Positions 295 to 20,931 of a DNA stretch of 64,000 bases are shown here, one piece after another. How positions within the stretch are numbered: position 1 is the first letter of the stretch; each line of letters starts with the position of its first letter. The notes under the pieces were generated by a model, which saw only the letters and a program-made list of their open reading frames with translations, did no database searches and had not been told where the DNA came from. The DNA is from a virus: the IMG/VR virus record IMGVR_UViG_3300021963_007714, positions 1 through 64,000 of that record, one strand, 5' to 3'. The position numbers and the translations under genes are program-made.

Positions 295-333
295 TAGCGG
301 GGTATTTGCTATATATGCTCTAGCGGGGTATTT
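295..333. repeat. 13-bp direct repeat TAGCGGGGTATTT x2
   Basis: Copies at 295-307 and 321-333; the second overlaps a minus-strand TAAATA. Confidence 0.7.
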
Positions 334-1072
334 ACCATTGACTATGATCCAGTCTAACCTGGATTCTAGTGATCTTTGGTGATATTCTATCTTGGCCAAT
401 CAATCTATAGCGCGATTCTATACGATTGACGCCGTCTCTCATGTTTTCCCACTGTCTATCACTAGCACTGAGATTCAGTCTATGAGTATATAGTGCCTGA
501 TTGCTCACTGAGTCATTTCTCAGTTCTCCATCACTGTCGAATCCCTGACTGGGATGATCTAGTGCTAGGAACACACCTGGTCTTTGAGCCAAAGTCAGTC
601 CCTGATCTTGTAGTCTCAGTCCCAGATCTGTGTCTTCCCATCCCCAGTTTGGGTAGTGATTACTATAGCCGTTCACAGAGAGGAATTGTTGTCTAGGCAT
701 CATCAGTACACTGCCCCAGAAGTTGTCCAGATCGTTGTGATATTCTCTCAAACCTTGTGTGATCAGTCTAGTTGGTTGTGCGCAGGGTGAGTAATCTGCG
801 GAGATAGGCACATAGTCGCAGTCGTGAAAGCAGATCTGATCGCCTGTGGTCAGTGCTGCGCCTATATTGCGAATCAGTCCTCTATTAAATTCATAGTCAC
901 CCATGATAGGCACACGTTCTACAATGGTTATATCATAGTCTAGTTCAGAGTGGTTACTGTCCAGGTATGCGGTCAGTTCACGTAGCAGCACATGTAGTTG
1001 TTGTTGTCTATCCGAGTAGATATCTGTTCGTTGGGGGTCTTGTTCTCCGTAGGGAATAATTATGTCTAGCAT
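332..1072 (-). CDS. Glycosyltransferase family 7 (beta-1,4-galactosyltransferase-like)
   Basis: IIPY, FNRGLIRNIG, FHDCD (DxD) and NGYSNHYPNWGWEDTDL match GT7 motifs. Confidence 0.85.
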   Translation of the reverse strand: MLDIIIPYGEQDPQRTDIYSDRQQQLHVLLRELTAYLDSNHSELDYDITIVERVPIMGDYEFNRGLIRNIGAALTTGDQICFHDCDYVPISADYSPCAQPTRLITQGLREYHNDLDNFWGSVLMMPRQQFLSVNGYSNHYPNWGWEDTDLGLRLQDQGLTLAQRPGVFLALDHPSQGFDSDGELRNDSVSNQALYTHRLNLSASDRQWENMRDGVNRIESRYRLIGQDRISPKITRIQVRLDHSQW

Positions 1073-1079
1073 ACAGTAT

Positions 1080-1589
1080 TTATTCTGGGTCTATGCTGAG
1101 ATTTGCCAGGATCACTGTTTTACTGTCAGCAGATACCAATGCTGTGCTACGATGACTCAGTGTGCTCATCATTATGACCACATCGCCTTCACTAGCTGGT
1201 ATTGATCTGGGGGTAGTGTCAAAAGGTCTACGATATTCTGTTCTAGGAGCTGTAGGGGGTAGATCTAGGTAGTAGATCAGGTTATAGTTATATTCTCCCC
1301 TATGGTCGTGCCAATCGTGGAAGTTATTGGTTTCATATTGTTGATACCATATGGCTATAATATCTATCACGTGCCGGTCAAAATTAAGATTGAGAAAGCG
1401 CATGATTTCTCTATGGAACAGGTCTTTATAGGCAGAATCTAGGCTGTATCTGGGCCAATCTGTGCGATTGATATCATTGTCTCTTGATCTGTAGTCAGTG
1501 GCGTGATCCTCACTGATCATGGTCAGCAGGCGGGGTTTGAGCAGATCATGCTGCGGCCAAGGCTTCAGCCAATACCACGGGTCTGTCAC
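1080..1589 (-). CDS. 2OG-Fe(II) oxygenase-like protein
   Basis: HDWHDH, xIYYL strand, EGDVVI..S.L.H and distal K.V..AN pattern of phage 2OG-Fe(II) DSBH proteins. Confidence 0.65.
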   Translation of the reverse strand: MTDPWYWLKPWPQHDLLKPRLLTMISEDHATDYRSRDNDINRTDWPRYSLDSAYKDLFHREIMRFLNLNFDRHVIDIIAIWYQQYETNNFHDWHDHRGEYNYNLIYYLDLPPTAPRTEYRRPFDTTPRSIPASEGDVVIMMSTLSHRSTALVSADSKTVILANLSIDPE

Positions 1590-2356
1590 TGGTTGACCCG
1601 GATGGTTTTATGCTGGGGATTCAGCTGTAGATTTTCCAGCCAGTGCCAGTGTTCTCCCAATACGGGAGTAAGACCTATGTGACTGCGGGGGATAAAATAC
1701 CTGCTGTCTGCGTCCAATAATCTCATTTGATCTATCACATTGCTGAACACGCTGTCCACACAGATCACACAATGAGCCTGTTCTATGGCTCCAAGCCAAT
1801 CAAACACCGAGTGAGTCAGAGCTGTGATTTCAATCACTGGTATGTCTGGGGGCAGTATGCCAGTGTCAAATTCAGCACGATGATCTGATCCGTCTAGATG
1901 TACCAAGATATAGGGTTGATCCTCATGGTCTAGGTTCTGTCTGATGAGGTCTAAGAGAGGTTGTTCACGATCTGGTCTACGTGTGATACAGGCCGCCAGC
2001 TGCCATTTATGGGCGAAGGGCACGCCAGCTTGTATGTACTTGTATTGATCAAATCCAGTGTGCTGAAACCACACTCGCTCGTGAAAACTCTGACCAGTCA
2101 GGGCCTGATAAAGGCACAGTTCTTGGTCTATACCCAGTTGTTGATAGATTGCTCGGGGCTGTTCCAAGAAGAACGAACCCTGATCTGTGCGCAGTGCATG
2201 CCAAGTGATCCAAGGCACATAGGGTTCAACATGTGGGATAAATTCACTACAGATTGCCCAGTGTATGTCATGCCCTTGTTCTTGATAGAATCGAGCTATG
2301 GGCAGGGCTATGACGATGTCACCCAAGCCTCGACTTTGTATGATGCCTATTTTCAT
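1586..2356 (-). CDS. GT-B glycosyltransferase, GT9 (heptosyltransferase)-like
   Basis: N-terminal RGLGDIVIALP; C-terminal ICVDSVFSN. Confidence 0.7.
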   Translation of the reverse strand: MKIGIIQSRGLGDIVIALPIARFYQEQGHDIHWAICSEFIPHVEPYVPWITWHALRTDQGSFFLEQPRAIYQQLGIDQELCLYQALTGQSFHERVWFQHTGFDQYKYIQAGVPFAHKWQLAACITRRPDREQPLLDLIRQNLDHEDQPYILVHLDGSDHRAEFDTGILPPDIPVIEITALTHSVFDWLGAIEQAHCVICVDSVFSNVIDQMRLLDADSRYFIPRSHIGLTPVLGEHWHWLENLQLNPQHKTIRVNQ

Positions 2357-2419
2357 GATGATCTCAAAGTAATTTAAGCATATTTAAAGACTTTGCCTAG
2401 TCAGGGTCTCAATCATGAA

Positions 2420-2425
2420 TAAATA
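2420..2425 (+). promoter_or_regulatory. Late promoter TAAATA, 7 nt before ATG
   Basis: TAAATA-gctgatc-ATG(2433); same motif recurs across the window. Confidence 0.7.
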
Positions 2426-2432
2426 GCTGATC

Positions 2433-3800
2433 ATGCCAATAACCATTTCATCTGGCACAGTGATCTTGGCCACTGTGACCACAGCCATTGCCTCGACTGC
2501 CACAGACATCATAGGACTAGGCTCAGACGGTTATGGATTAACCACATATACATCGTTTCCCACTCGTGCGGGCAACAGAATCAGTCAAAATCAACTACAG
2601 GGTATATTTCGTGATCTCAACACTATCACACAGCATGTCAGTGGGCAGTTTACTACCACCATAGTGATCACCACTGGTTCACTGATCACTACCAGTACAT
2701 TCAGTGATCTTTGGCGACTCAAAGAGTATGTGAGCATGGCCAGATACACACTACATCCCAGTCAGCGCAGCACCTATACTGGTACTAGTGGCAGTGTGGA
2801 AGACATTTGGCTACAGAATAGCACCAGCACACGCAGTCAACTGTGGCCCACTACGCCTGTGGCCTGGACCACCAGTACGATCACGCACAGAACCAGAGTT
2901 CAATGGGTAACTACCAGTCTGGCTCAGTATTTTTTCAACTCAGGCGGTGATCTAGTGTTCAAGCCCTACTGGACCACAGGTACTGGGGCCATGAGTACCA
3001 GTTCTAGCACATTCAAATTGATTGACAATGCCTGGGCTAGGTTTGTGAATACAGGACAAAGTTTTGTCACAGATTGGACCTATCGTAGGTCTGACTACGT
3101 TAATTATGTTACTACAAGTCGTAGTTGGGGGTCAGCTAGTACACTCAGCGTCACAGTCACAGCAGTTAAGGTAGATGGACGGACTATAGACTTTGCCGTA
3201 GACTATAGTACCTACGTCAGTGGTGGCATATGGTATGATGATGCTGTCACAGTGATCAGCCAGCCCCCTGTGGTCATTGACAACGTGACCAATAGCTTTG
3301 ACAGCAGTGGTGATCCTAACCCCAGTATAGATCTACAAGGGGGTGATGGTATAGGTGATGGTATAGGTGATGGTGCTGGAGGGGGTGGTGGAGCCAAGGT
3401 GATCTGTACTGAATTATACCACCAGGGATTATTGGATAGAGACATATACCTATTGGATCAACAATTTGGTCGTTGGTTGTTGATCAATGATCCTCAAACA
3501 TATTGGGGCTATAGAGCATGGGCAGATATATTGGTTAGGTACATGCGGGGTCAAGGTAGGCCCATCATACCCAAGCTGCTGTTTTGGCAAAGTGAACAGC
3601 AGCAACAGATCCTTAGCCAGCGCCTAGCTCAATGGATAGCCCGAAAGCTGGCTGAGCCCTTTGCCTATGAATTGGCACGTAGGGTAGATGGTCAAACTAG
3701 ACCATTTAGGCTCAGTGGTTATCTAGTGGTCAGCGTGGGCCTACCCATTTGTAGATTGATAGGTCGTTTTGGCCTAAAAGGAAAAAGTCATGTTGTTTAA
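2433..3800 (+). CDS. Thr/Ser-rich putative virion protein with C-terminal poly-Gly-KVICTELY domain
   Basis: Thr-rich beta-type N-terminus, GDGI/Gly linker, then a distinct basic/aromatic helical domain; late promoter. Confidence 0.6.
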   Translation: MPITISSGTVILATVTTAIASTATDIIGLGSDGYGLTTYTSFPTRAGNRISQNQLQGIFRDLNTITQHVSGQFTTTIVITTGSLITTSTFSDLWRLKEYVSMARYTLHPSQRSTYTGTSGSVEDIWLQNSTSTRSQLWPTTPVAWTTSTITHRTRVQWVTTSLAQYFFNSGGDLVFKPYWTTGTGAMSTSSSTFKLIDNAWARFVNTGQSFVTDWTYRRSDYVNYVTTSRSWGSASTLSVTVTAVKVDGRTIDFAVDYSTYVSGGIWYDDAVTVISQPPVVIDNVTNSFDSSGDPNPSIDLQGGDGIGDGIGDGAGGGGGAKVICTELYHQGLLDRDIYLLDQQFGRWLLINDPQTYWGYRAWADILVRYMRGQGRPIIPKLLFWQSEQQQQILSQRLAQWIARKLAEPFAYELARRVDGQTRPFRLSGYLVVSVGLPICRLIGRFGLKGKSHVV

Positions 3801-3963
3801 CACTACACAAGCTGAATTTTATCAAAGGCTAGACAGCCTCACAGAAGAACAAAGAATGACCCTATTCATGGGTATCACCAAAGAAGCAGCAGAAATCATG
3901 GCCTTACTGTTACCCGATGAGCCCATGGTAGCAGAATTGCTAGCATTTAAGCGTATGACCTAA
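3790..3963 (+). CDS. Small hypothetical protein (57 aa; not in the ORF track)
   Basis: MLFNTTQAEFYQRLDSLTEEQRMTLFMGITKEAAEIMALLLPDEPMVAELLAFKRMT; its stop overlaps the next ATG (TAATG); AAGGA upstream. Confidence 0.7.
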   Translation: MLFNTTQAEFYQRLDSLTEEQRMTLFMGITKEAAEIMALLLPDEPMVAELLAFKRMT

Positions 3964-5453
3964 TGACCATACAGTACATAACAACCAGCAGCCTAACCAA
4001 TTATGTCAGCAGCCTAACCATTGGCAGCAGCATAGGCTATAGGATCAGTGGTGGGGGTATATTGGGCCCTAAACCCTATATGCAGACTACATCAACCTTG
4101 GATGGTACCCTAATTAGTTTTTCAACCGTGAATACAGAAACTAGGATATTGGTAGTAACAGAAGCAGATCCACAGGGTCGTTTTGAAGCCTACACAGGAG
4201 TAGAGGGTACACGCAAGGCTATCACTTTGACCAATATAGGTAATAGCACCATGCTGGTAGAAGCGCCTGTGTTCAGCAATCGTTTGACTCAGGCTCACCC
4301 TCGTTATCTACGCCTGATGAGGCCGCCTTGGAACATAGCCTCTGGAACTAGTAGAACTTTTCTATTGAGCTATAGTGGACTAGAAGAGGGCACCTTCAGT
4401 GAAAGCATATTTTTCCCTACTCCTACAGCTACCCTACCTTATTATAGAATGGACACCGAAGTGGTCAGCAGATCGGGCTATACCTATTCCGTTGAGCCAT
4501 ATGGTTGGAATACTACCACATTTAGAATAGGTGAAAACTCACTAGTTGACTATACGATAACACCTAGATATTTTGGAGTAGAGGCTGAAGGTTATGAAGT
4601 CCCTATTAGCACAACACTAGTTGGAGATCCTGCTTGGAGTTATGACTACATAGGATCTAATCGTGTTACAGTGAGATTTAGCAGCAGAGGGTTGACCAAT
4701 AATACAACGACCTATGTCAGCACCTTAACCATAGTTACACCTAATGAAACCTTTACCAGAGTCAATACGGCCACTCATAGTGTCAACCTTGCCCTAAACT
4801 ATAATACCAGCACATGGATCAGTGCTCTGTGTTTACCTGATGTCATTGTAGGAATGCGTATAGATCAAGTACAGACATCATCTACAACCACAGCTACAAC
4901 AAGGTTGTTGACCATAGGAGTAGGCAGCGGAGCTGATGGAGCTCCTACCTATGCCCAAGGTGGTAGTCTATATTTCGATCCTGCTAACCTACAGCCAATG
5001 GAAGGCTCTGCCAAGTTACCATTTGCCTATTGGCAGACAGTGTACCAAATACCATTGGTTGGTACTGCTAGTTTAAAAACCTATCTCAGCGGTGATTATA
5101 AGGTAAAAACACAAGAACCTCAGGCCAGGGATTATGATTACTATTTTGGAGTAGACAGTGATCAGGGCAGCATGTTTACCATACGAGAAGACAGTGAGGG
5201 TTATGTTTCTGTGATCATTAATCAGTTGCGAGAAACCAGTGGTGATGCTACACGAGATCTAACATTAACTAGACTGAGCAAGGTATTCTACTATGCTGTG
5301 CCCAGTTTATATTCATATTATCCCAATGGTTGGTTAGGACAAACCATAGACGAATTTGGACAGCCAGACCCCAATGGAACCAATTGTTGGCTATTTGTGG
5401 GATTTGATAATCGCGGTCAAGTACAGCTCAATTTAGTGCCATTACCTAACTGA
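3963..5453 (+). CDS. Putative virion structural protein with Ig-like (ASH/PapD-type) module
   Basis: ITLTNIGNST...IASGTSRTFLLSY pattern; Thr/Ser-rich. Confidence 0.5.
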   Translation: MTIQYITTSSLTNYVSSLTIGSSIGYRISGGGILGPKPYMQTTSTLDGTLISFSTVNTETRILVVTEADPQGRFEAYTGVEGTRKAITLTNIGNSTMLVEAPVFSNRLTQAHPRYLRLMRPPWNIASGTSRTFLLSYSGLEEGTFSESIFFPTPTATLPYYRMDTEVVSRSGYTYSVEPYGWNTTTFRIGENSLVDYTITPRYFGVEAEGYEVPISTTLVGDPAWSYDYIGSNRVTVRFSSRGLTNNTTTYVSTLTIVTPNETFTRVNTATHSVNLALNYNTSTWISALCLPDVIVGMRIDQVQTSSTTTATTRLLTIGVGSGADGAPTYAQGGSLYFDPANLQPMEGSAKLPFAYWQTVYQIPLVGTASLKTYLSGDYKVKTQEPQARDYDYYFGVDSDQGSMFTIREDSEGYVSVIINQLRETSGDATRDLTLTRLSKVFYYAVPSLYSYYPNGWLGQTIDEFGQPDPNGTNCWLFVGFDNRGQVQLNLVPLPN

Positions 5454-5472
5454 TTTTTGATAATTAGTTGTC

Positions 5473-7260
5473 ATGCTGATAGATAGTATTCCTCAAATTA
5501 CCTATGAACAAGTCGCCAGTATAGAATATCAAGGTGACCATTTACAGTACGACTCTGCTCTAGCTGAACTTGTCACTGAACATGATTATGCTATAGTTAA
5601 AAATCCCAACCTTGCCAATCCAAATTTGGTTTATTTTATAGACAGTATCCCTGATAATCAAAGACAGTGTATAGTATATTATTATAAAGATGAATGGTTA
5701 GCCAAGATCTTCTATCGTGGTTGGACTGCTGATAAAGGTTACAAATCTATTAACATACGAAGTCCACAAGTCGTATGGAGAAAAAACCCAGACCTAGATA
5801 ACTCAATGACATTTATTGACACACCATTTGGCCAATGGGAACCAGAACCATGGGATGTTGAATATACTATGACATGGTATATGGATCCACAGTTTAATCC
5901 CACCTCAGACCGTGTTTGGGTTATGACCTGTGAAGTAATAGGTACTAGCATCAAAGGCATCAAAGATATGGGTTACCTTAGTCCTGAGGTTAACATTGAA
6001 TACAATCCTATGATACCTGCCTTGCTTATTGATCTGGATGGTGCTTTACCTGCCTATTGGGATTTGTCTTATACCTGCGCATACTACCTAGATCCTAGTC
6101 ATTGTGATGCTGATAATGAAAAAGTATGGTTAGTTAAGATTGAGCCTAGTTATAGAAAAACTAAAGATTGGAAATGGTTGGGGATGATCACACCTAGTCC
6201 GGACATTATATATAATCCTACACTTGGCATAGTAAATTATGATATAGACATCGGTCAAACTCATTTTAGCGACTTTGCTTATGAAAATCAATACCTATTA
6301 GACAGAAAGCATCTAGACAACGACCATGATGACATTTGGGCATTTAAAGTATTGTGGTATAGAGAAACACAAGGTCTTAAAGTTATGGGCTATGCCAGCC
6401 CCTTGGTTAATACAGAGGTCAATAGAGATTTGGGCGTTGATCTAGACCTAGATTATGTAATACAGAAAAAAGAATTTGATCGTACATTGGTTTGGTATAT
6501 TGACCCTAAACTGTCTAATATGAATAAAATTTGGGCCCTAAAGAAATGGATAGGGTCAGCAGGACCTGAGCTAGACCAAGGTCTTGTTGATCTAGACATT
6601 GAACAAGAATTTGACGTGGTCTTTATAGACTATGACGAGCCTAATGCTGAAACTAATTGGCAAAGATTACAATCTATAGCGCCTAAGGCATTGAGAGTAA
6701 CTGGCATCAAAGGTATTCTAGAGGCTCACAAGGCAGCAGCTAGAAAATCAACTACAGAAATGTTCTGGGTAGTTGATGCTGATTGTTATCTACAAGATGA
6801 CTGGTCGTTTGATTATATTCCCAGTGTATTTGATAGGGATTGTGTATTTGTTTGGCATAGTCTTAACCCTGTTACCGATCTTCAGTATGGCCATGGCGGT
6901 ATCAAACTCTTACCGAGACAACTGCTAATAGACTTGACAGATTGGGGTACTGATCTCACTCAGAGTATAAGCAAAAAGATAAAAGTTATAGATCGCATCA
7001 GTAATGTTACAGCATTCAATACATCTGAATTTGCCACATGGCGCAGTGCTTTCCGCGAAGTGGCCAAACTCAGTCAAATGAATTCGGCAACAGCACACGA
7101 AAGAATTCAAAGATGGTTGTCACCTAGATCAGATGCTAGGTTTGCTATATGGGCAGAAAAAGGTGCTAGAGATGCATTGAAATGGGTTAAATCAAATCCT
7201 ATTAATCTTATCAACAATTATGATTATCTAGCAGAACATTTTAAGAAAAACTATGAATGA
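5473..7260 (+). CDS. Repeat-containing protein with C-terminal GT-A glycosyltransferase-like domain
   Basis: 4-5 N-terminal ~68-aa repeats; C-terminal DVVFIDYDEP...HKAAA...FWVVDAD (DxD)...YGHGGIKL. Confidence 0.7.
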   Translation: MLIDSIPQITYEQVASIEYQGDHLQYDSALAELVTEHDYAIVKNPNLANPNLVYFIDSIPDNQRQCIVYYYKDEWLAKIFYRGWTADKGYKSINIRSPQVVWRKNPDLDNSMTFIDTPFGQWEPEPWDVEYTMTWYMDPQFNPTSDRVWVMTCEVIGTSIKGIKDMGYLSPEVNIEYNPMIPALLIDLDGALPAYWDLSYTCAYYLDPSHCDADNEKVWLVKIEPSYRKTKDWKWLGMITPSPDIIYNPTLGIVNYDIDIGQTHFSDFAYENQYLLDRKHLDNDHDDIWAFKVLWYRETQGLKVMGYASPLVNTEVNRDLGVDLDLDYVIQKKEFDRTLVWYIDPKLSNMNKIWALKKWIGSAGPELDQGLVDLDIEQEFDVVFIDYDEPNAETNWQRLQSIAPKALRVTGIKGILEAHKAAARKSTTEMFWVVDADCYLQDDWSFDYIPSVFDRDCVFVWHSLNPVTDLQYGHGGIKLLPRQLLIDLTDWGTDLTQSISKKIKVIDRISNVTAFNTSEFATWRSAFREVAKLSQMNSATAHERIQRWLSPRSDARFAIWAEKGARDALKWVKSNPINLINNYDYLAEHFKKNYE

Positions 7261-11821: not shown

Positions 11822-12498
11822 ATACTGAATTACTATCCTTTATTGAAATCAACAAAAAATTTAATTGGCGCCCGGAAAAAATCTTACCTCAGAATCTATG
11901 GTCATCTGATTGGCCGTGGGTGCCCGTGTTTCCTTCAAAGTTTGATTATCAATCTATTATGTTAGAAATGGATGAGATAGATTACCTTTTTGTTCCGCAT
12001 AGGGATAAGGACAAGATTAATAGTTATGGACATGAGGGGTGGTATTCTATTACACTTCATGGAATATCACATGATAAGACTGAAAATTTTGATAGATATG
12101 GATTCAGCAGTCAAGAAGAAGCTGGATATGATTGGACAGAGGTATGTAACCTTATACCTAAAACCATAGAGTTAGTTAAAAACTTTCCTTTTAGGAACTA
12201 TGGTAGAATACGGATAATGAGGTTATCTCCTGGGGGGTATATAATGCCGCATACAGATGGCCCTTCAAGAATGTTTGGACCTTTTAATTTTGCGCTGTCA
12301 AACCCTGAAGGTTGTGAATTTATATTTGAAAATTTCGGATTGGTTCCATTTCGAACAGGTAGAGGATTTATGTTAGATATAGGAAACAGGCACTGTGTGT
12401 TTAATCAATCAAATCAATATAGATATCATGTTATTATTCATGGTGAACCTATGCCACAAATTAATGAACATATCTTAAAGTCTATGGCGTTATTATGA
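11818..12498 (+). CDS. Aspartyl/asparaginyl beta-hydroxylase-like 2OG-Fe(II) oxygenase
   Basis: RIRIMRLSPGGYIMPHTD (HxD)...H.VFN.S...R.HVII. Confidence 0.8.
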   Translation: MNTELLSFIEINKKFNWRPEKILPQNLWSSDWPWVPVFPSKFDYQSIMLEMDEIDYLFVPHRDKDKINSYGHEGWYSITLHGISHDKTENFDRYGFSSQEEAGYDWTEVCNLIPKTIELVKNFPFRNYGRIRIMRLSPGGYIMPHTDGPSRMFGPFNFALSNPEGCEFIFENFGLVPFRTGRGFMLDIGNRHCVFNQSNQYRYHVIIHGEPMPQINEHILKSMALL

Positions 12499-13880
12499 AC
12501 ATTATTACAGAACCATTTGTTAATGATATTGGACTGTCTATCTGTATATTTCCTGCAGATACCCTACATAATCAAGAATTAATTGATAGAATGACCGAAT
12601 ATACGACTTTCTACGCATTAAGATTTGCCCAGTTATCAAATGACAGAAATCCTCCAGTAGAAGTTTTCCACGCTATGAATATAGAGTCTGGTCTACATGA
12701 TCTATCTGATCAATTTGAGCATATTTTGTTTATGGCCGCAGGGGTAAGAATATATGATATGAGTATTATTTTCGATATAAAAAATATTATTCAACAAAAT
12801 CATAATTATTTGGCTGCTGCTCATATTTTAGAATGGCAAGAAAGGTGGTATGAACTACATCATCAATTTATATTGATTAATACTAAAAAATGGATTGCCG
12901 CAGGAAGCCCAGATTTTGGAGGATGGGAGGAACGAGTTGATAGTCTGCCTATTATTGAGCGAAGCATAGAAAATTTTCATGATCATTATACACCATTATG
13001 GATAAGATTTACGGGTGAATATAAAGAACAAAAACATCAAAAGCAGGGATGGAATTTTATCAACCAAGCAGCAAGAAACGGATTTGATATTATAAATTGG
13101 GATAATAATGTTAGATCAAAACGAACATATTATTATCCAGAAGATAATAGCGAACGATTTTTACATAGTCTAAAGACTTTAGAAATTGATCCTAAGGCTA
13201 ATGCTAACCAACGAAATCTTATTAATCAATTGAAAATAGTCAGTAGTCAAATATGGCTTTTAAATTCTGAAAATATGGATTTGGAGTTGAACGGTGAGAA
13301 ATTCGATACGATTGCTTTACCTGCTGCAGGATTTAAGTTTTTACATTGTTTGCTAACGCAATCACTGTCACAAGGAGGTAAGCTATTAATTTACGATTAT
13401 AACCCCTTGAGTATATCCTGGATTGAATTTATATATAATTCTAAAGATAGAAAAATTGATGATTTGATAAAATCATTTGAATATAAGCATTTTTTTAAGT
13501 TTTTTAAGAATAATGTTTTTGGTAAAGAAGGTTTATATACTAAAGAATTTAATGATAGCCTTAAAATTACCAAGGAGTTTTTCGGCGGGGCAGACGAATT
13601 TGAAAAACTTCTTAATATTTTTAGAACTACAGATGTTGAATTTATTACTTTAGACTTGTTATCAGATCCACAATTATTAACAGATAAATTTCTTGGAAAA
13701 ACGGTAGTAAATATTTCTAATATTTTTTGTACTGATTTTAGTAATGCTTACTTAGGTATGAAATTGACCACGGAAAAGTTACGAAATTTTTTAGGCTCTA
13801 TTAAAACAGAAACATTAGTTTTAGGACAAGACTCTTATTGCAGGCCAATTAAAAAGCGTATTAAATATGCTCAAGTATAA
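12495..13880 (+). CDS. Hypothetical protein in the modification operon
   Basis: 461-aa ORF coupled to the upstream gene (ATGA overlap); no family recognised with confidence. Confidence 0.6.
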   Translation: MNIITEPFVNDIGLSICIFPADTLHNQELIDRMTEYTTFYALRFAQLSNDRNPPVEVFHAMNIESGLHDLSDQFEHILFMAAGVRIYDMSIIFDIKNIIQQNHNYLAAAHILEWQERWYELHHQFILINTKKWIAAGSPDFGGWEERVDSLPIIERSIENFHDHYTPLWIRFTGEYKEQKHQKQGWNFINQAARNGFDIINWDNNVRSKRTYYYPEDNSERFLHSLKTLEIDPKANANQRNLINQLKIVSSQIWLLNSENMDLELNGEKFDTIALPAAGFKFLHCLLTQSLSQGGKLLIYDYNPLSISWIEFIYNSKDRKIDDLIKSFEYKHFFKFFKNNVFGKEGLYTKEFNDSLKITKEFFGGADEFEKLLNIFRTTDVEFITLDLLSDPQLLTDKFLGKTVVNISNIFCTDFSNAYLGMKLTTEKLRNFLGSIKTETLVLGQDSYCRPIKKRIKYAQV

Positions 13881-15861
13881 AAATTCGTTTTGTTTTTCCT
13901 TTTTCTATCTTTTTGTCTAAGGAAGAAGTAATGATGTCTTTTTCTGAACAATAGTCTGCCCATGCCTGTTCTTTGATAACATTAATGTAGGTTTGTTTTT
14001 CATCCCAGTGCCCATTACCCTCCCATTCGAAATGAAAACTTTTACTTCCGTCTAGCCACCATTCTCCTTCATGATGAAATTTAGACTTGTGCCTAACTGT
14101 AAAATTACCCTGTGTATCTATTTTAATATAGTGATATCCTTCATAATTATCAGATAGATAATCACCAAATTCGTTGGCATCTCTAACTTTGTCAAAAGTT
14201 ATCTCAAATTCGAAACCACCCTTAACTCTCCATAACATTCTTATAAATCCCCAAATTTCATTTACAATGGTGTCAGCAAATGGACCGAGATTTGGTTTAA
14301 AAATATTATGATCAAACTCCTCATATTGAATTTCATCTAAAAATAAGTCATTGTCAAACTTTAATGAAAAATGATTAATTATATCAGGTCGTTCTTGATT
14401 ATTATCAATTATCCCATATTGTTTACATACTCTTAACCAAATATTAAAATATTTTAATCTAATGAAACGATGTAATTTTGTGTTGGTCCAGTCTAACGAC
14501 CACCACTTATGTAAAAATGTTTTTTCCCAAGGACTCATATTATAACGATCTCTATTAAATTCATAATCAGTTTGCATACTGTCACCTAATGTAACTCCTG
14601 GACTAATACCTCCTATCCTATTCCTATGATTCCATATTAAATTTAGGCTATGAGCCATTGCTTGAATATCCTCAGCAGGTGCCCCTACAATCCAATTAGC
14701 ATGACTAAAAATTCCTACCTTAGATGCGTTTATAAGGTTTTCATTAATGTCCTTAATTTTTACATTTTTCCTCATAAGATCTAAAACTTTTTGACTACCG
14801 CTTTCGATCCCGTAACTTAAATTAGCACATCCGCTGGCTTTCAGGTCTTTATAATAATCTAGGTCCATTCTTCCGTCACATCTTGCATACCCCATCCATT
14901 GAATTTTCAGTCCTCGTTCTACCACACCTTTGGAAAATTCACGTAATTCTTTCAAATTACCATTTGTAAGACTATCTATGAACCAAACAAAGTTAATTCC
15001 ATAGGTCTTACTCTGATACTCTAGTTCGTCTAGAATATTATCAGCTTTTCTATCTCTGTATTTCCAAAACCATGTCTCTCTACAAAAACTACATTTTGCT
15101 ACACATCCTCTACTTAACTCCGCACTTATTCCATAGCTACTTGTATATTTTGAGAAATCATAATCGCTGTAATCTGGTATAGGTAGACTATCTAGATCTA
15201 TTCTTGTCTCTCCAAAAGTTTTTCCTAATTTTCGCTCAGTGACTAGTTTGTTGTTTTCAACATTTTGTAAGTAGTCAATTAATACTTGCTCGCCTTCACC
15301 TGCAACCCAATGGTCTACTGAAGGACATGGTATATAATCAGGCATATGACATTGAGGTCCTCCGCAGATTATTTTTAAATCTGGTCTAACTTTTTTTAAT
15401 TCAGTTGCCAGCCATTCTGTGGGCTCTCTGTTAGTATCATATACACTAAACCCTATTACATCCGGATTTTCTAATAAAATTTTTTCTAAATATTGTCTAA
15501 GTATAGGTTCTAGGGTAGGGTGTATTCGTTTCTGATATTCTCCGTTGAACCACCAATAATGGTTATTAGCATCCCACGCTGCATCAAGTCCTGAAGGCTT
15601 TAGATCATAATAACTTTCTATGTTAAGATCAAACACCTTAGTGTAGTATCCTGCATCTCTAGTCAAAGCAGATAGTCTTGCTAGGTTATAGGGAGGAAAG
15701 TAAACTCCCCAACATCCTAATATACATAATACCAGTTTAGTCTTTCTAGTGACATTATGATACGTTATTGCTGATAGATTTTGTCTTCTAGGCTTATAGT
15801 TTTGCTTAGGCAATACCGTTTCCGCTAACCAAACATGTTTATCTTTAACTTCTGTAGTCAT
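13861..15861 (-). CDS. Cobalamin-binding radical SAM protein (class B methyltransferase-like)
   Basis: PPYNLARL...PDVIGFSVY...ICGGP...GEGE B12-binding domain; SRGCVAKCSFC; GIESGSQKVL. Confidence 0.9.
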   Translation of the reverse strand: MTTEVKDKHVWLAETVLPKQNYKPRRQNLSAITYHNVTRKTKLVLCILGCWGVYFPPYNLARLSALTRDAGYYTKVFDLNIESYYDLKPSGLDAAWDANNHYWWFNGEYQKRIHPTLEPILRQYLEKILLENPDVIGFSVYDTNREPTEWLATELKKVRPDLKIICGGPQCHMPDYIPCPSVDHWVAGEGEQVLIDYLQNVENNKLVTERKLGKTFGETRIDLDSLPIPDYSDYDFSKYTSSYGISAELSRGCVAKCSFCRETWFWKYRDRKADNILDELEYQSKTYGINFVWFIDSLTNGNLKELREFSKGVVERGLKIQWMGYARCDGRMDLDYYKDLKASGCANLSYGIESGSQKVLDLMRKNVKIKDINENLINASKVGIFSHANWIVGAPAEDIQAMAHSLNLIWNHRNRIGGISPGVTLGDSMQTDYEFNRDRYNMSPWEKTFLHKWWSLDWTNTKLHRFIRLKYFNIWLRVCKQYGIIDNNQERPDIINHFSLKFDNDLFLDEIQYEEFDHNIFKPNLGPFADTIVNEIWGFIRMLWRVKGGFEFEITFDKVRDANEFGDYLSDNYEGYHYIKIDTQGNFTVRHKSKFHHEGEWWLDGSKSFHFEWEGNGHWDEKQTYINVIKEQAWADYCSEKDIITSSLDKKIEKGKTKRIFILEHI

Positions 15862-15888
15862 ATAAATATTTTCGCTTTGGAGTATTTA
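15861..15888. promoter_or_regulatory. Overlapping face-to-face late promoters between divergent genes
   Basis: Plus-strand TATAAATA at 15861-15868 and minus-strand TAAATA at 15888-15883. Confidence 0.55.
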
Positions 15889-16758
15889 ATGAAGAAATAC
15901 AATCATATCGCAGTAATGATTAGAGGGCTACCTAGAACATGGAATTACGCTAAACACTCTATCTTTTATACTTATAGCAAAATTGCCTATAATATAGATT
16001 ACTATTTTTCAACTTGGGATTTGGATTATATAGATGAAAATGTTATCAGATATGATTTTAAAGGTAAAAACCTTGTTGCCCTTGTTAAATGCCCTATAAT
16101 AGAAGAGTATAGAGATGTTTTTAGAAGTCCCGGATGGTTCTCCTATAATCTTCTACCAGCTATGCGTTTAAGAGATCAGGAAATTCAATATGAGGCAATT
16201 TTTGATCAAAGGACAGATTGTATCAATTATATATTTGGGGATCATTTCGATATAACCCCAAATACCTACCATACCGAATGGGTATGCCCGGAACAACGAT
16301 CTATACGGCATGTCTGTGATTGTAATTTTGCATGTGATTCTAACACTTATGAAAAATTAGCACTACGATTTTTAAAAACTGAAATGGAGTTAGGGCAAGT
16401 GAATTGGCGAGATCTTGATTTTAATTGGAGTAATGCTATAAGGTCAAACAATCCTATACTACTACCTGGGAAAACTATTATATTGAACACAGAAGCAGTG
16501 ATGTTTAACTTTATAAGGCAGGCTAGGATAGAAATTAAGGTTAACAGATTAATAAATTCCATCTTATGTAGGCCATCTATGATAGAGAAATGCCCAGATC
16601 CTTTACAAATTTGTTTTTTACCAAGACCTTGGGAATGGTATAGATTTTTTAGCAATGGTATTGTTAATGAATGGGATACTATGAATAATGAAGATAAAGT
16701 TAATTTGTGTCTCAAGCATAACATCAATCCTAGCGAATATTTTCTTAGTCAACCTTAA
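15889..16758 (+). CDS. Hypothetical, glycosyltransferase-like protein (start revised from 15835)
   Basis: GGAG RBS before ATG 15889; IAVMIRGLPR...YFSTW...RTD resembles phage GT-like families. Confidence 0.5.
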   Translation: MKKYNHIAVMIRGLPRTWNYAKHSIFYTYSKIAYNIDYYFSTWDLDYIDENVIRYDFKGKNLVALVKCPIIEEYRDVFRSPGWFSYNLLPAMRLRDQEIQYEAIFDQRTDCINYIFGDHFDITPNTYHTEWVCPEQRSIRHVCDCNFACDSNTYEKLALRFLKTEMELGQVNWRDLDFNWSNAIRSNNPILLPGKTIILNTEAVMFNFIRQARIEIKVNRLINSILCRPSMIEKCPDPLQICFLPRPWEWYRFFSNGIVNEWDTMNNEDKVNLCLKHNINPSEYFLSQP

Positions 16759-16765
16759 ATAACTC

Positions 16766-16882
16766 ATGTTTACACATATCTTAGAAGCTATAAAAAAATT
16801 GATTTTCAAAATTAAAATTAGAAATCAATATAGAAAAAGAAAAAAAGAATTACAAAAAAAAGATCCTTACCTTTATAAATGA
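16766..16882 (+). CDS. Small basic protein (38 aa; not in the ORF track)
   Basis: MFTHILEAIKKLIFKIKIRNQYRKRKKELQKKDPYLYK; TAAATA 4 nt upstream; stop overlaps next ATG. Confidence 0.7.
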   Translation: MFTHILEAIKKLIFKIKIRNQYRKRKKELQKKDPYLYK

Positions 16883-17568
16883 ATGATGACCTTATAAAAA
16901 CCTTTTATGATACTATTAGATTTCCTGGACCTTATTCTTTTGAATCTTTCGAAGTATACAGAGAAGAAATTATTAATCCTTATATTAATCTAATAGACAT
17001 ATATACATCTAAAATTTCCAACTTGTTAGATGTAGGCTGCGGAACTGGTTTTATTACTAATTTTTTGGCACAGAGGTATCAGAATTTAGAAATACAAGGT
17101 TTAGATTTTTCTGAAAGTATTGCCTATGCTGCACATTTTGCTAAAGAACATAATTTACAATCTCAATTTATTAGGCAAAATTTTTTAGAGTTTGATTCTG
17201 ATAAAAAATATCAATTAGTCCTATGTCAAGGAGTTTTACATCATATTCCAGAATTCAACAAAGCATTAGACAAATTGAAATATATCACCGAACCTAACGG
17301 ATATTTAATTTTAGGACTGTATCATCCGTTTGGTAAGTTACTTAAAAAATTCTTTAATCTAAAATATAAAAATAATATTTTGGAAAAAGATCAAGAAGAA
17401 AATGTCTATGAAAGAAGTTACTTTAAAAACAGTATTGTTAATGCTGTCGGACCTAATTTTAAACTTATAGATCAGACACCAAATAATATAATTAAAAATT
17501 TTATAATTAATCCGATCAATTTTAGCATTAGCGGCGGACTGGTTACCTATGTTTTTCAAAAGGCATGA
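16879..17568 (+). CDS. Class I SAM-dependent methyltransferase
   Basis: LLDVGCGTG, GLDFS, GVLHH, PNG.LILGLY. Confidence 0.9.
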   Translation: MNDDLIKTFYDTIRFPGPYSFESFEVYREEIINPYINLIDIYTSKISNLLDVGCGTGFITNFLAQRYQNLEIQGLDFSESIAYAAHFAKEHNLQSQFIRQNFLEFDSDKKYQLVLCQGVLHHIPEFNKALDKLKYITEPNGYLILGLYHPFGKLLKKFFNLKYKNNILEKDQEENVYERSYFKNSIVNAVGPNFKLIDQTPNNIIKNFIINPINFSISGGLVTYVFQKA

Positions 17569-18395
17569 GATATATTATGAATAAAAATACGATTTTCATT
17601 TATGGAGACAGTGCTAGTGCTTCTGAATTAGATCACATCGCACCCGGTTGGGCAAAAATGCTGTCAGACAGGTTAGATTTTGAATTATTGAACAGGGCAG
17701 TTTCTGGTGGAAGCACAGAAAATGCCTTCAATAATTTTACAGGTGATTACCTGTCATCCCTATTTAAAGATGGAGATTTGATAGTTTTTCAATTTAGTAC
17801 AGTAGGACGTTTGTTCTTAAATCATCAAACAGAATTTCCTAGAACCGCCTCATTATATTTAAATCCTCCTAAATTTTTAGATAAAAAAGAACATCGTTGG
17901 TATTTTGAAAATAAAGAATATTTGGAATGGTACGTTGTTAACCATAATCTAAGAATCAATGATATCAGTCAAGCTGCATATAAACATGTACTTAAAAATT
18001 TAGCCGAATCAAACCCCGGAGTCACCATTGTAATATTAGAACTTGACAAAAAACAGATTGATTTTCCGTTAGGTAACATACCAACTAATTTTTTTGCCCC
18101 AAATTTCGAACTTCATAAAGTGTTTAGCAACGAAATAAAATCTAGATTACAATATTTTGATTGGGTAAAATATACAGGATGGGATCCTAGAATTAATCAC
18201 ATGTCAATTCCAAATTTGATCAAAGTTGCGAATTTGATTTATGATCTCTATACCCGAAGAATTGATATTGAAGACTATAACGGATATTTCATTGAAGATT
18301 GTTTTGAGCAGATCAAAAATAAAGAAGATTATAAGAGTTATGCCAGGCATGGTCTTTTATATGATTATGAATTTGAAGGCTTCAAATTTGCTTAG
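17565..18395 (+). CDS. SGNH/GDSL-like hydrolase-fold protein
   Basis: IYGDS, NRAVSGGS, distal NH. Confidence 0.55.
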   Translation: MRYIMNKNTIFIYGDSASASELDHIAPGWAKMLSDRLDFELLNRAVSGGSTENAFNNFTGDYLSSLFKDGDLIVFQFSTVGRLFLNHQTEFPRTASLYLNPPKFLDKKEHRWYFENKEYLEWYVVNHNLRINDISQAAYKHVLKNLAESNPGVTIVILELDKKQIDFPLGNIPTNFFAPNFELHKVFSNEIKSRLQYFDWVKYTGWDPRINHMSIPNLIKVANLIYDLYTRRIDIEDYNGYFIEDCFEQIKNKEDYKSYARHGLLYDYEFEGFKFA

Positions 18396-18400
18396 ATTTT

Positions 18401-18955
18401 ATGATTATAAATCTTAACGATGCTTTTAGTAGCGGCCAAATAGGTAGTAAATTATGGTTATGTGAAGAATCTGAAAAATGTTTTGAAACCATAGACACAA
18501 TCTGGATATATGGTGGGTGGTATGGACTAACTGCTTTTCTATTAAAATCTAGAAATAAAATTAACATAGGAAAAATTAGAAGTTTTGATATAGATCCTAG
18601 CTGTGAATCTACAGCAGATTTGATAAACGAAAATTGGGTTTACTCTGATTGGCAATTTAAGGCAACTACCAAAGATTGTTGTGAATTATTTCCTAATTTG
18701 AACGAAACTGATTGTATTATCAACACCAGCACAGAACACTTTCAGAACCTTAGTTGGTTTAACAATTTGCCCAAAGGCATGACAGTAATTTTACAAGGTG
18801 CTGATATGGAACATATTGATCATGTTTTTAGATTCAATGACTTATCACAATTTATCGAAACTTTTAGTCTCACTAAAACTTACTATGTAGGTGAAAAACT
18901 ATTTAATTATCCAGAATGGAGTTTTAAACGTTTCATGCTCATTGGTGTAAAATAA
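18401..18955 (+). CDS. Methyltransferase-like protein
   Basis: IYGGWYG, SFDIDP, IINTSTEH Rossmann-type motifs. Confidence 0.6.
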   Translation: MIINLNDAFSSGQIGSKLWLCEESEKCFETIDTIWIYGGWYGLTAFLLKSRNKINIGKIRSFDIDPSCESTADLINENWVYSDWQFKATTKDCCELFPNLNETDCIINTSTEHFQNLSWFNNLPKGMTVILQGADMEHIDHVFRFNDLSQFIETFSLTKTYYVGEKLFNYPEWSFKRFMLIGVK

Positions 18956-18966
18956 ACCTAAACTGC

Positions 18967-19011
18967 TTGTTTTAAAGCCTTTTTGACATTATAATGTCAA
19001 ATTGATATAAA
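18967..19011 (+). promoter_or_regulatory. Tandem sigma70-like promoters overlapping a perfect 20-bp palindrome
   Basis: TTGTTT-17-TATAAT (18967-18995) and TTGACA-17-TATAAA (18983-19011); palindrome TTTGACATTATAATGTCAAA at 18982-19001. Confidence 0.65.
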
Positions 19012-19619: not shown

Positions 19620-19628
19620 GGAATAAAA

Positions 19629-20882: not shown

Positions 20883-20887
20883 ATAAT

Positions 20888-20906: not shown

Positions 20907-20931
20907 TTCTTATAGACAAACGGAGGCGGTA

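Follow-up and report, generated by a model that had tools for sequence, protein, structure and literature searches.

RiPPs of the proteusin/polytheonamide type are tailored by a 2OG hydroxylase and a SAM methyltransferase along with radical SAM enzymes, among them a B12 C-methyltransferase; RRE docking domains are known from RiPP pathways. Hydroxylation followed by glycosylation of the new hydroxyl is the logic of LH3, of which mimivirus L230 is a viral analogue. LH3 (PLOD3; PDB 6fxm) carries a 2OG/Fe hydroxylase and a GT-A-fold domain in one polypeptide. Capsid glycosylation in the chlorovirus PBCV-1 relies on soluble viral GT-A enzymes that modify virion proteins in the cytoplasm during late infection. 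Among T4-like aquatic myophages, the tail fiber region of pelagimyophages and cyanomyophages holds a large, variable island with glycosyltransferases, the host recognition cluster (HRC; Zaragoza-Solas et al. 2020; PMC7029224), whose radical SAM cassettes were reported without an assigned function.

We analyzed a 64,000-nucleotide window of an uncultivated T4-like phage of water origin, in which a block of ∼18 tailoring enzymes occupies positions 332 to 18955 and adjoins lysis, baseplate, and tail fiber genes. The cluster is real and consists of tailoring enzymes. It was matched without differences by a 20.7-kb contig of one run, and its entire length was covered by zero-difference pieces from two further studies. 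The initial annotation had described a late biosynthetic-style cluster as a candidate pathway for virion decoration; the observation largely holds, and its interpretation is partly supported.

The block shares the setting of the HRC, but the HRC paper describes no conserved core, fusions, or cellular counterpart, and it favors O-antigen modification, which is disfavored here by the absence of membrane proteins. The RiPP palette recurs in the block, together with a non-catalytic domain fused to different enzyme classes; however, the block differs in having GT-A domains and sugar enzymes, and neither a gene for a precursor peptide nor, by Pfam, a PqqD-like RRE was detected. Its B12 enzyme also stays well under all RiPP equivalog cutoffs. 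Fusions of hydroxylase and GT-A-fold domains are common to LH3 and relatives of this locus, whereas the hydroxylase of the block belongs to PF05118 rather than to the lysyl hydroxylase type, the domain order differs, sequence identity is ∼8 to 10%, and there is an additional methyltransferase domain along with radical SAM partners. The system of PBCV-1, a eukaryotic virus, lacks radical SAM, hydroxylase, and adaptor components.

Promoters, composition, and solubility

Three transcription units of the block are headed by T4-type late boxes (NATAAATA), located 11 to 27 nt ahead of the starts at 1072 (−), 2433 (+), and 15889 (+). The first box (AATAAATA, 1077 to 1084, minus strand) lies 11 to 12 nt upstream of a GT7 gene, the second (AATAAATA, 2418 to 2425, plus strand) is the only box ahead of the gene train from 2433 to 13880, and the third (TATAAATA, 15861 to 15868, plus strand) heads the genes for U307, MT, the SGNH-like protein, and U184. 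The motif ATAAATA is a genuine signal in this genome: of its 29 copies in 109 kb, 23 (25 with two corrections made by hand) are found no more than 60 nt upstream of a start on the same strand, compared with 3% expected, and structural genes at 34468 and 57158 are also preceded by NATAAATA. Because late boxes head the units and are so strongly tied to gene starts, the block is predicted to be expressed late, as first proposed. The accompanying claim that TAAATA or TAATTA replaces sigma-70 promoters stands for the late boxes and for the lack of enrichment of sigma-70-like sites (87 found versus 79.6 ± 8.9 in shuffles), but TAATTA received no support as a promoter.

Most gene junctions in the block overlap, in agreement with the translational coupling noted earlier. 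The GC content is 0.434 at 332 to 7252, 0.335 at 7253 to 15861, and 0.302 at 15862 to 18955, compared with 0.389 in the rest of the contig; the AT-rich stretch, originally placed at ∼9.8 to 19 kb, extends from 7.2 to 19 kb and is the most AT-rich part of the contig. Its suggested status as an exchangeable cassette fits this dip, the differing accessories at the same position in relatives, and the switches in the radical SAM tree.

None of the 18 block proteins has a membrane-like segment, so the enzymes are taken to be soluble and therefore cytoplasmic. This weakens the alternative that a soluble tailored glycan or nucleotide-sugar feeds the envelope pathways of the host and remodels LPS, capsule, or S-layer glycan at its surface while infection proceeds, for instance as a means of blocking superinfection or of keeping progeny from adsorbing. 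Such remodeling, which we regard as unlikely, is also countered by the absence of a flippase, polymerase, or polyprenyl-phosphate transferase, by the poor fit of late promoters to superinfection exclusion, and by the finding that the enzymes share a non-catalytic fusion partner, which suggests a tethered polymeric substrate. It draws support from recurring sugar-chemistry accessories (carbamoyltransferase, NDP-sugar epimerase/dehydratase, NDP-hexose C-methyltransferase, and the SGNH protein), from GT2 genes and an MFS transporter gene flanking the radical SAM pair in Bdellovibrionota, and from the membership of the lipid A hydroxylase LpxO in PF05118. The glycosyltransferases of the pelagimyophage HRC have been read in this way (PMC7029224).

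Flanking genes of the block

The leftmost gene (332 to 1072, minus strand) encodes a 246-aa GT7/GT2-like GT-A glycosyltransferase (PF02709, E 1e-14; PF13733, E 6.5e-07) with DCD and WGWEDTD motifs. It is followed by a 169-aa 2OG-Fe(II) oxygenase (1080 to 1589, minus strand; phrog_81, E 6.5e-20) and a 256-aa protein (1586 to 2356, minus strand) that is unmatched in Pfam, PHROG, and NCBIfam and whose sequence resembles a GT4 N-terminus in the PDB only weakly (E 1.7). On the plus strand, two ST-rich proteins of 455 aa (2433 to 3800) and 496 aa (3963 to 5453), separated by a 57-aa ORF (3790 to 3963), are candidate structural proteins or acceptors. Neither has a Pfam, PHROG, or NCBIfam match, both have almost no phage homologues, and only their composition (S+T, 22 to 23%; E+K, 3 to 5%) is fiber-like. 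The former has a Gly-rich linker and a mobile C-terminal module of ∼120 aa that is also found behind unrelated N-termini; the latter has 26 metagenomic homologues and none in cultured phages.

The next gene, P595 (5473 to 7260, plus strand), combines four ∼50-aa W-Y-x-D-P repeats with a conserved C-terminal domain, P595C, in which alignment reveals an invariant D-x-D. In Ralstonia phage RsoM2USA as well as in 12 viral and 2 cellular loci, P595C has N-twitch radical SAM genes as neighbors; it is a candidate, unproven glycosyltransferase. The three or more glycosyltransferase types proposed at the outset are confirmed in part: the enzyme at 332 to 1072 and the N-terminal domain of the protein at 12495 to 13880 are supported, and the protein at 1586 to 2356 and P595C are unproven candidates.

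The right-hand unit begins with U307 (15889 to 16758, plus strand), whose probable start is the second ATG and which sits upstream of NT1 in two other loci (L001 and L046). It continues, on the same strand, with a class I SAM-dependent methyltransferase (MT, 16879 to 17568; PF13847, E 7.4e-19) and an SGNH/GDSL-like protein (17565 to 18395), an early assignment that is partly supported by the GDS...D..H pattern (G14-D15-S16 and D207/H212, conserved in nine homologues) but falls below the Pfam cutoff (PF13472, E 0.0028). The SGNH-like gene occurs in nine viral loci. The last gene encodes U184 (18401 to 18955, plus strand), a small Rossmann/methyltransferase-like protein with methyltransferase features at motif level only (conserved G39..G42 and D63/D65). 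U184 recurs as a partner of P595C and the N-twitch enzymes; it was found in 15 viral loci, in 3 cellular loci, and in RsoM2USA as gp347.

Radical SAM enzymes and the conserved core

All four radical SAM enzymes listed in the initial annotation, one of them B12-type, have an intact CX3CX2C motif. NT1 (7253 to 8572, plus strand) and its paralogue NT2 (8559 to 9830, plus strand) score 351 and 378 bits against NF033640 (N_Twi_rSAM; cutoff, 170 bits), and conserve four N-terminal Cys of a twitch-type domain as well as CX3CX2C. The family has been known by name only, whereas here it forms a conserved orthologous pair; members in other loci occur in arrays of up to ∼10 paralogues, and a literature search found no characterized member or substrate. 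In the radical SAM tree, which contains at least 19 virus/cell switches, the NT1 orthologue clade holds 36 viral and cellular rows and the NT2 clade 37; NT2 has 663 homologues at E ≤1e-10. RS3 (10736 to 11821, plus strand; PF04055, E 3.5e-11) conserves C25/C29/C32 and four C-terminal Cys (C254/C274/C298/C303). The class B, B12-binding enzyme (13861 to 15861, minus strand; PF02310 and PF04055), whose NCBIfam matches are all far under their cutoffs, is a probable C- or P-methyltransferase.

Outside the block, ErpA/IscA-like, IscU-like, and IscA-like Fe-S assembly genes (20559 to 22095), assigned by reading their Cys motifs, lie behind a divergent pair of TATAAATA boxes. A-type carriers are found within 10 kb of the core in seven other viral loci, and a NifS-like gene sits beside the N-twitch pair in 18 cellular loci. 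The phage IscU, IscA, and ErpA proteins would probably supply the many clusters of the radical SAM enzymes.

Three proteins form a conserved core that is new here. U314 (9799 to 10743, plus strand) is modeled as a cyclophilin-like barrel with a helical insert (AF2 pLDDT, 92.5); a Foldseek search with the model gave no match, and cyclophilins were retrieved VIA-wide at Z 9 to 9.8, where best Z scores of 7 to 8 are common for unmatched models. HYD (11818 to 12498, plus strand) is a 2OG/Fe oxygenase of the Asp/Asn beta-hydroxylase family (PF05118; 46 bits, cutoff 22.6), with a triad H145-x-D147...H192 conserved in 40 homologues, and its best solved relative is a free-proline hydroxylase; together with the oxygenase at 1080 to 1589 it accounts for the two such enzymes claimed. 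U461 (12495 to 13880, plus strand; AF2 pLDDT, 91.7) joins a GT-A-fold domain (residues ∼7 to 247) to a class I methyltransferase-fold domain (∼247 to 458), NNMT-like in the fold search; methyltransferases are among the confirmed components of the block. Its GT-A domain matches LARGE1, hyaluronan synthase, the LH3 glycosyltransferase domain (LH3 chains are among the best matches), and PBCV-1 A64R at Z ∼10; the value for A64R (PDB 2p72/2p73; Z 9.5 to 9.8) is no better than for many other GT-A enzymes. Column conservation revealed no conserved DxD in this domain, and sugar transfer is therefore not assured.

Sixty viral loci carry the core, as do many of 63 cellular loci, which belong mostly to Bdellovibrionota. 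Its bearers include many other aquatic phages and predatory Bdellovibrio-type bacteria. Among 62 viral loci, U461 is encoded in 61, HYD in 60, the N-twitch enzymes in 48, U314 in 47, and RS3 in 38. Fusions in other genomes join U314-HYD-U461, U314-HYD, HYD-U461, U461-B12 (L004, L005, L014, and L016), U314-RS3 (L002 and L050), and NT-NT. Among the 150 best U314 matches of 1.84 billion proteins, ten longer members were scanned; the only recognizable partner was PF05118 in two of them and a radical SAM domain in four, and the remaining four gave no Pfam match. Since fusions link the core proteins with one another and with radical SAM enzymes, these proteins are likely to work together. Two sub-modules emerge: A, with P595C, NT1/NT2, and U184, and B, with U314, RS3, HYD, U461, and the B12 enzyme. 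Accessories vary around them. Four loci (L019 to L021 and L028) share the right-hand hydrolase, IscA, and ligase genes and are devoid of RS3, B12, U307, MT, and SGNH; 18 viral loci and 7 cellular ones encode a NodU/CmcH carbamoyltransferase, and L001 carries an NDP-sugar epimerase and an NDP-hexose C-methyltransferase.

This repertoire bears on two further explanations. The infected cell, like predatory bacteria, could make a diffusible natural product, derived by heavy modification from a sugar, nucleoside, or peptide, against competitors or prey, as the secondary-metabolism palette (B12 radical SAM methylase, twitch/SPASM radical SAM enzymes, hydroxylase, carbamoyltransferase, and methyltransferases), the adjoining MFS exporter in Bdellovibrionota, and the term "antibiotic synthesis genes" for similar genes in a cyanophage paper (PMC12801897) would suggest. 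This is distinctly improbable: no scaffold-forming enzyme (NRPS, PKS, or cyclitol synthase) is present, no small precursor gene fits into the tightly overlapping core or lies beside it, the genome codes for no small protein of the HxS type, and a product made only at the end of the lytic cycle would have little time to act.

The enzymes might instead hypermodify phage DNA after replication by hydroxylation, glycosylation, and methylation, allowing escape from host nucleases. Radical SAM enzymes do occur in some thymidine and deazaguanine pathways. For base hypermodification, phages also pair 2OG oxygenases with glycosyltransferases and methyltransferases (10.1101/2023.12.21.572611). We consider this reading very improbable, given that TET/JBP, DNA methyltransferase, nucleotide kinase, and hydroxymethylase domains are absent, that PF05118 is not a nucleic acid oxygenase family, that the promoters are late and common to structural genes, and that the core also resides in cellular chromosomes among housekeeping genes. 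DNA precursor synthesis, disfavored from the beginning, is likewise unlikely, with nucleotide metabolism and TET/JBP-type domains lacking and the core present in Bdellovibrionota chromosomes, where GT2 and MFS genes adjoin it.

Proposed mechanism and candidate substrates

Our tentative preference, held at somewhat less than an even chance, is a late cytoplasmic machine of several enzymes, through which a phage structural protein or the glycan on it undergoes hydroxylation, glycosylation, methylation, and radical editing. The B proteins, because of their fusions, may act as one complex on one substrate. U314, proposed as a docking or adaptor protein by analogy with the RRE domain of RiPP pathways, could dock a polymeric substrate and present it to the radical SAM enzyme as well as to the hydroxylase. 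HYD would create a hydroxyl to which the GT-A-like domain of U461 would then add a sugar, in the order of steps known from LH3, and the methyltransferases and the B12 enzyme would methylate afterwards. NT1, NT2, and RS3 might perform radical edits (epimerization, dehydrogenation, cross-linking, or C-C chemistry) on the peptide or glycan. The likeliest substrate would be a structural or host recognition protein made at the same late time, with the two ST-rich proteins heading the same transcription unit as first candidates; in other phages these two do not accompany the core, and no acceptor protein or motif for the block was identified.

Counted in favor of this machine were the enzyme identities and intact catalytic motifs, the late box, the membrane-free proteins, core conservation, fusions, folds, the lack of room for a small precursor gene in the overlapping core, position, and the nearby Fe-S genes. 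Counted against it were the missing acceptor, the independence of the ST-rich proteins from the core, the absent DxD, the middling cyclophilin match, the presence of LpxO in PF05118 and the free-proline relative of HYD, and recurrent accessories that are classic small-molecule or sugar tailoring enzymes.

Judged from its sequence, the block consists of soluble enzymes driven by late promoters and organized as two conserved sub-modules with swappable accessories, and it probably serves the chemical decoration of a protein or sugar chain.

Gene map, contig integrity, and late-type boxes

Scans of the ORF map against Pfam, PHROG, and NCBIfam placed a GT7/GT2-like GT-A glycosyltransferase (332-1072, minus strand), a 2OG-Fe(II) oxygenase (1080-1589, minus strand), and the 256-aa orphan U256 (1586-2356, minus strand) at the left end of the block. 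These are followed by two ST-rich orphans, candidate structural proteins (2433-3800 and 3963-5453, plus strand), with a 57-aa ORF between them, the protein P595 (5473-7260, plus strand), a pair of N-terminal-twitch (N-twitch) radical SAM enzymes matching NF033640 (NT1, 7253-8572; NT2, 8559-9830), the orphan U314 (9799-10743, plus strand), a third radical SAM enzyme (RS3, 10736-11821), a PF05118 hydroxylase (HYD, 11818-12498), and the orphan U461 (12495-13880, plus strand). A B12-binding radical SAM enzyme (13861-15861, minus strand), the orphan U307 (15889-16758), a class I methyltransferase (16879-17568), a weakly matching SGNH protein (17565-18395), and the orphan U184 (18401-18955) complete the block. 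Start and stop codons overlap at most junctions of the 7253-13880 stretch and also at 1586/1589 and 17565/17568, in agreement with the coupled gene train described in the initial annotation. The AT-rich stretch reported there was recovered as well, with a GC content of 0.335 across the core and 0.302 over the right-hand tail versus 0.389 in the rest of the contig.

The whole contig, from an uncultivated phage, is a single piece of 109,028 bp (GC, 38.5%), and the window is its first 64 kb. It opens (positions 1-70) with the 11-mer CCCACAATGTT repeated five times in tandem and then in degenerate form, a repeat that may be terminal or packaging related or may simply be the contig end. Three further studies contain near-identical pieces of the contig, from marine and freshwater metagenomes; none of the matching runs listed is an RNA run. 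A 20.7-kb contig from one run shows zero differences to the block, and pieces from two other studies cover the region, again without a difference. Such agreement between independent studies indicates that the block is not an assembly artifact, and for the same reason the explanation of the GC dip as a prophage or a misassembly was dropped. Contigs of other runs gave only short-sided joints at less than 95% likeness and no evidence for within-population cassette variants.

From 24.5 kb on, the window encodes baseplate-wedge, collagen-like tail-fiber (31449-34406), and other virion proteins. The virion protein at 29226-30584 shares 47 to 51% identity with structural proteins of Synechococcus T4-like myophages and 57% with a protein of an uncultured spring-water phage. 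A single ORF of 5392 aa occupies 37494-53672, flanked by virion genes. An HNH endonuclease gene (23950-24459, minus strand) with its own GATAAATA box is found between the ligase and baseplate genes. Directly to the right of the block (19044-19961), a SleB/Hydrolase_2 cell-wall hydrolase, which has one membrane-like segment at its N terminus, precedes a 110-aa protein that has three such segments; the two look like a signal-anchored endolysin/holin lysis pair. This type of hydrolase recurs near the core genes in 16 other viral loci.

Counting both strands, the 109-kb contig has 29 copies of the motif ATAAATA, and 23 of them are situated no more than 60 nt upstream of an ATG-ORF start on the same strand (about 3% expected); two more qualify once the U307 start is reset to 15889 and a 44-aa ORF is included. 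Exact TATAAATA is not overrepresented in the window as a whole (6 found versus 10.7 expected); its placement with respect to starts, rather than the number of copies, carries the signal. The NATAAATA box is found shortly upstream of the first genes in the block and at structural genes. Late-type boxes are located at 1077-1084 (minus strand, before the GT7 gene), at 2418-2425 (plus strand, before the gene at 2433), and at 15861-15868 (plus strand, before U307), the second being the sole box ahead of the 11.4-kb gene train that ends at 13880; this box is also found ahead of the structural genes at 34468 and 57158. Sigma70-like sites are present at the level of chance. Boxes of the TATAAATA type serve as late promoters in T4-like phages. 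The presence of this box at the heads of the block's units, in common with structural genes, therefore supports the proposed late timing, and late expression of the block is a sound prediction from sequence.

Enzyme families and predicted folds

All four radical SAM enzymes anticipated in the block retain the CX3CX2C motif. NT1 and NT2 score 351.4 and 377.8 bits as whole proteins against NF033640 (N_Twi_rSAM; NCBI curated cutoff, 170), and on this score both are assigned to that family. The CX3CX2C cysteines C126/C130/C133 and the N-terminal cysteines C8/C27/C67/C70, a set of the kind that binds an auxiliary cluster, are invariant across 8 diverse N-twitch members. NT2 has 663 homologues (E value of ≤1e-10), and no characterized NF033640 member was found in the literature searched. 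RS3 carries four further conserved C-terminal cysteines. The B12 enzyme has an N-terminal PF02310 domain (40.1 bits; cutoff, 32.1) followed by PF04055 (51.4 bits; cutoff, 29.5), which is the class B architecture expected of the one B12-dependent member. It fell below the cutoffs of the named class B equivalogs ApyD (104 versus 750 bits), PhpK (95 versus 600), the RiPP C-methyltransferase TIGR03975 (87 versus 282), and BchE (90 versus 481).

Two 2OG-Fe(II) oxygenases had been proposed, and both were found: the minus-strand gene at 1080-1589 and HYD, which matches PF05118 (46 bits; cutoff, 22.6) and keeps the H-x-D...H iron triad. HYD residues H145, D147, H192, and R202 are invariant among its homologues. 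Its best relatives of solved structure, all weak (E values of 3e-5 to 7e-3), are a free-proline hydroxylase, a "beta-hydroxylase," and AspH.

The predicted model of U461 (pLDDT, 91.7) contains two domains. Residues ∼7 to 247 adopt a predicted GT-A fold that matches LARGE1, hyaluronan synthases, B4GALNT1, the glycosyltransferase domain of LH3, and PBCV-1 A64R (Z, ∼10; root mean square deviation, 2.8 to 4.4; 142 to 186 residues aligned). Residues ∼247 to 458 adopt a predicted class I methyltransferase fold (Z of ∼10 to NNMT, PNMT, and INMT), in which A277, the motif-I G279, and the acidic D301 are invariant or nearly so. The expectation of three glycosyltransferase types stood in part, with the GT7/GT2-like gene at 332-1072 and the GT-A fold of U461 in its favor, but U461 has no conserved DxD (at position 88, 12 of 27 sequences have D, 6 have N, and 2 have E, with no D-x-D). 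In place of DxD the GT-A half carries its own invariant His/Arg/Asp set, and the invariant residues of this domain comprise H122, Q124, R156, S157, H162, Y165, T166, and P167. Sugar transfer by the modeled GT-A half is plausible but, given the missing DxD, not assured.

The U314 model (pLDDT, 92.5) had no Foldseek match at an E value of ≤0.001. In the Foldseek-independent VIA-wide search, cyclophilins made up most of the top 25 rows (Z, 8.5 to 9.8; 124 to 147 residues aligned), with scores that exceed the VIA-wide background by little, and the model includes a four-helix insert at ∼50 to 145. A cyclophilin-like fold for U314 is consistent with this model but is only a middling match. In the C-terminal domain of P595 (P595C), a candidate GT-A domain, D76-x-D78 is invariant in 13 members; its profile retrieved nothing from the PDB, and hhalign comparisons with a GT2, the GT7 protein, and U461 were not significant. 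The start of P595 (5473-6600) holds four repeats of ∼50 aa (W-Y-x-D-P ... K-V-W ... K-D-M-G-Y-x-S-P), the number of which varies in the relatives at loci L017, L019, and L021. PDB sequence searches with NT2, the B12 enzyme, RS3, P595, and U256 and with the U461, U314, and P595C profiles returned nothing useful. ESM Atlas gave only viral hypothetical proteins as neighbors of U461 and no usable match for U314.

A fused core in phages and Bdellovibrionota

A search of IMG/VR with the U461 profile identified 60 loci, which together with two found earlier gave 62 viral loci. U461 is present in 61 of these, HYD in 60, N-twitch enzymes in 48, U314 in 47, and RS3 in 38; U184 (15 loci), P595C (12), SGNH (9), and the B12 enzyme (8) are rarer. 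The smallest loci consist of only U314 and a fused HYD-U461, and the largest contain at least 10 consecutive radical SAM genes. In nine viral loci whose radical SAM arrays are large (within L052-L062, e.g., L052:15141-15371), a conserved protein of 73 to 76 aa lies between two RS3-type genes; the window lacks it.

The N-twitch profile search of cellular genomes found 63 loci, nearly all in MAGs of Bdellovibrionota; the contigs reach 2.5 Mb, and the neighbors are housekeeping genes (gcvP, lon, nuo, and mfd). Many of the loci additionally encode RS3, HYD, U461, U184, or P595C. A tree of 204 N-twitch proteins contains well-supported NT1 (36 rows) and NT2 (37 rows) clades, each with viral and cellular members mixed, and at least 19 viral/cellular label changes. 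The core is common to phages and predatory bacteria, with repeated exchange between them. Among cultured phages, a DNA search with 5000-19000 gave no match, and tblastn found none for U461 or the ST-rich protein at 3963-5453 and only remote or partial matches for HYD, NT2, the B12 enzyme, and the ST-rich protein at 2433-3800; the core is absent from the cultured phages searched. The sole cultured phage found with part of the system is the Ralstonia jumbo phage RsoM2USA (MG752970.1, 12950-16689; locus L126), whose gp347 to gp350, annotated as hypothetical, match our U184, P595C, N-twitch radical SAM, and P595C profiles, respectively.

The same set of profiles detected core members fused to each other and to radical SAM enzymes. 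U314, HYD, and U461 form one chain in a Bdellovibrio MAG (1062 aa) and a WWE3 MAG (1032 aa). Shorter fusions join U314-HYD (537 aa), HYD-U461 (669 to 688 aa and 808 aa), U461-B12 radical SAM (1167 to 1171 aa), U314-RS3 (689 to 711 aa), and NT-NT (840 to 876 aa). These fusions indicate that the fused core proteins act together. An exhaustive profile search of 1.84 billion proteins recovered 1017 relatives of U314; ten longer ones among the best 150 were scanned, of which two have a C-terminal PF05118 domain, four have a C-terminal radical SAM domain, and four have no Pfam match. U314 is an N-terminal module common to two mechanistically unrelated oxidizing enzymes. Collectively, the block is a real, conserved, late-box-driven set of soluble enzymes whose core members are fused in other genomes.

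Candidate substrates and relation to known systems

We hypothesize that the core would form a complex acting on one substrate held by U314, with hydroxylation followed by glycosylation and methylation, by analogy with LH3, and with further edits added by the radical SAM enzymes. We tentatively propose that the substrate is a structural or host-recognition protein of the phage, or the glycan on it, with a confidence somewhat short of even. This choice is favored by the late timing, the cytoplasmic enzymes, the position in a fiber island, the protein-type families (PF05118, twitch radical SAM, and the candidate cyclophilin-like fold), and the lack of both a scaffold enzyme and a precursor peptide. 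None of the 18 block proteins has a membrane-like segment (no 19-residue window reaches Kyte-Doolittle 1.6), unlike Gtr-type serotype-conversion and O-antigen systems, which rely on a membrane flippase and polyprenyl-linked glycosyltransferases.

The accessory genes of the compared loci include several of sugar type. A carbamoyltransferase of the NodU/CmcH type is encoded in 18 viral and 7 cellular loci, both kinds of loci repeatedly encode a small radical SAM-SPASM protein, and a second PF05118 protein is found mainly on the viral side (9 viral loci and 1 cellular locus). One compared locus (L001) also encodes an NDP-sugar epimerase/dehydratase and an NDP-hexose C-methyltransferase. The radical SAM pair of Bdellovibrionota comes after two GT2 genes and before an MFS transporter gene, and a NifS-like aminotransferase lies beside the pair in 18 loci. 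The sugar-type accessories and the MFS neighbor keep alive the explanation that the block modifies a host-surface glycan, which we consider unlikely. They also sustain the production of a diffusible product, a reading that is less probable still, with neither a scaffold enzyme nor a precursor peptide present. Fe-S genes (ErpA/IscA-like, IscU-like, and IscA-like) are located 2 kb to the right of the block (20559-22095) with their own late boxes and flank back-to-back TATAAATA boxes (20888, minus strand; 20899, plus strand). In 7 other viral loci, A-type carrier genes are found no more than 10 kb from the core.

RiPP clusters have a precursor peptide gene in or beside them; none was found at the block, where the overlapping core genes leave no intergenic room and the only nearby small ORFs (57 and 38 aa) are not conserved with the core. 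Small proteins with HxS/CHxS repeats or RGRR ends were absent from all six frames of the whole genome. A classical RiPP cluster was considered and dropped for want of a precursor gene. The C-terminal ∼120 aa of the ST-rich protein at 2433-3800 (residues ∼323 to 445), which follow a Gly-rich linker, match the ends of proteins that are otherwise unrelated (293 to 733 aa) at 51 to 74% identity and appear to be a mobile module of the kind seen in fiber and anchor proteins. A pattern search of IMG/VR found zero relatives of either ST-rich protein. Modification of DNA is highly unlikely; phage DNA hypermodification clusters carry a TET/JBP-type oxygenase, a DNA methyltransferase, or nucleotide-modifying enzymes beside the glycosyltransferases, none of which was found in the block by Pfam and NCBIfam.

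The block is an island of the known kind that forms the host-recognition cluster of T4-like aquatic myophages. For pelagimyophages, a curli operon and a large variable fiber-region island with glycosyltransferases and "radical SAM cassettes" have been described (Zaragoza-Solas et al., PMC7029224). Such cassettes of marine myophage tail-fiber islands are mentioned in the literature without explanation, and the gene fusions now indicate which proteins work together. The literature searched contains no description of the U314/HYD/U461 core, its fusions, the two predicted folds, or the Bdellovibrionota link. New here are the small conserved core, its fusion-defined partners, the predicted folds of two orphans, and the sharing between phages and predators with repeated exchange.

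More speculatively, aquatic phages and predatory Bdellovibrionota may share a previously undescribed posttranslational machine that gives recognition fibers a chemically new and diversifiable coat, a proposal that we regard as doubtful. Here a cyclophilin-like docking protein would recruit the hydroxylase, the GT-A/methyltransferase protein, the B12 radical SAM methylase, and the N-twitch arrays to host- or prey-recognition fibers. If true, this would constitute a new class of modification of virion proteins and would give NF033640 its first function. The question is testable at the bench, since RsoM2USA is cultured and encodes some of the system. Should the product decorate host-recognition proteins, the system would be a source of new radical chemistry and would add a new layer of host range determination in very abundant aquatic phages.
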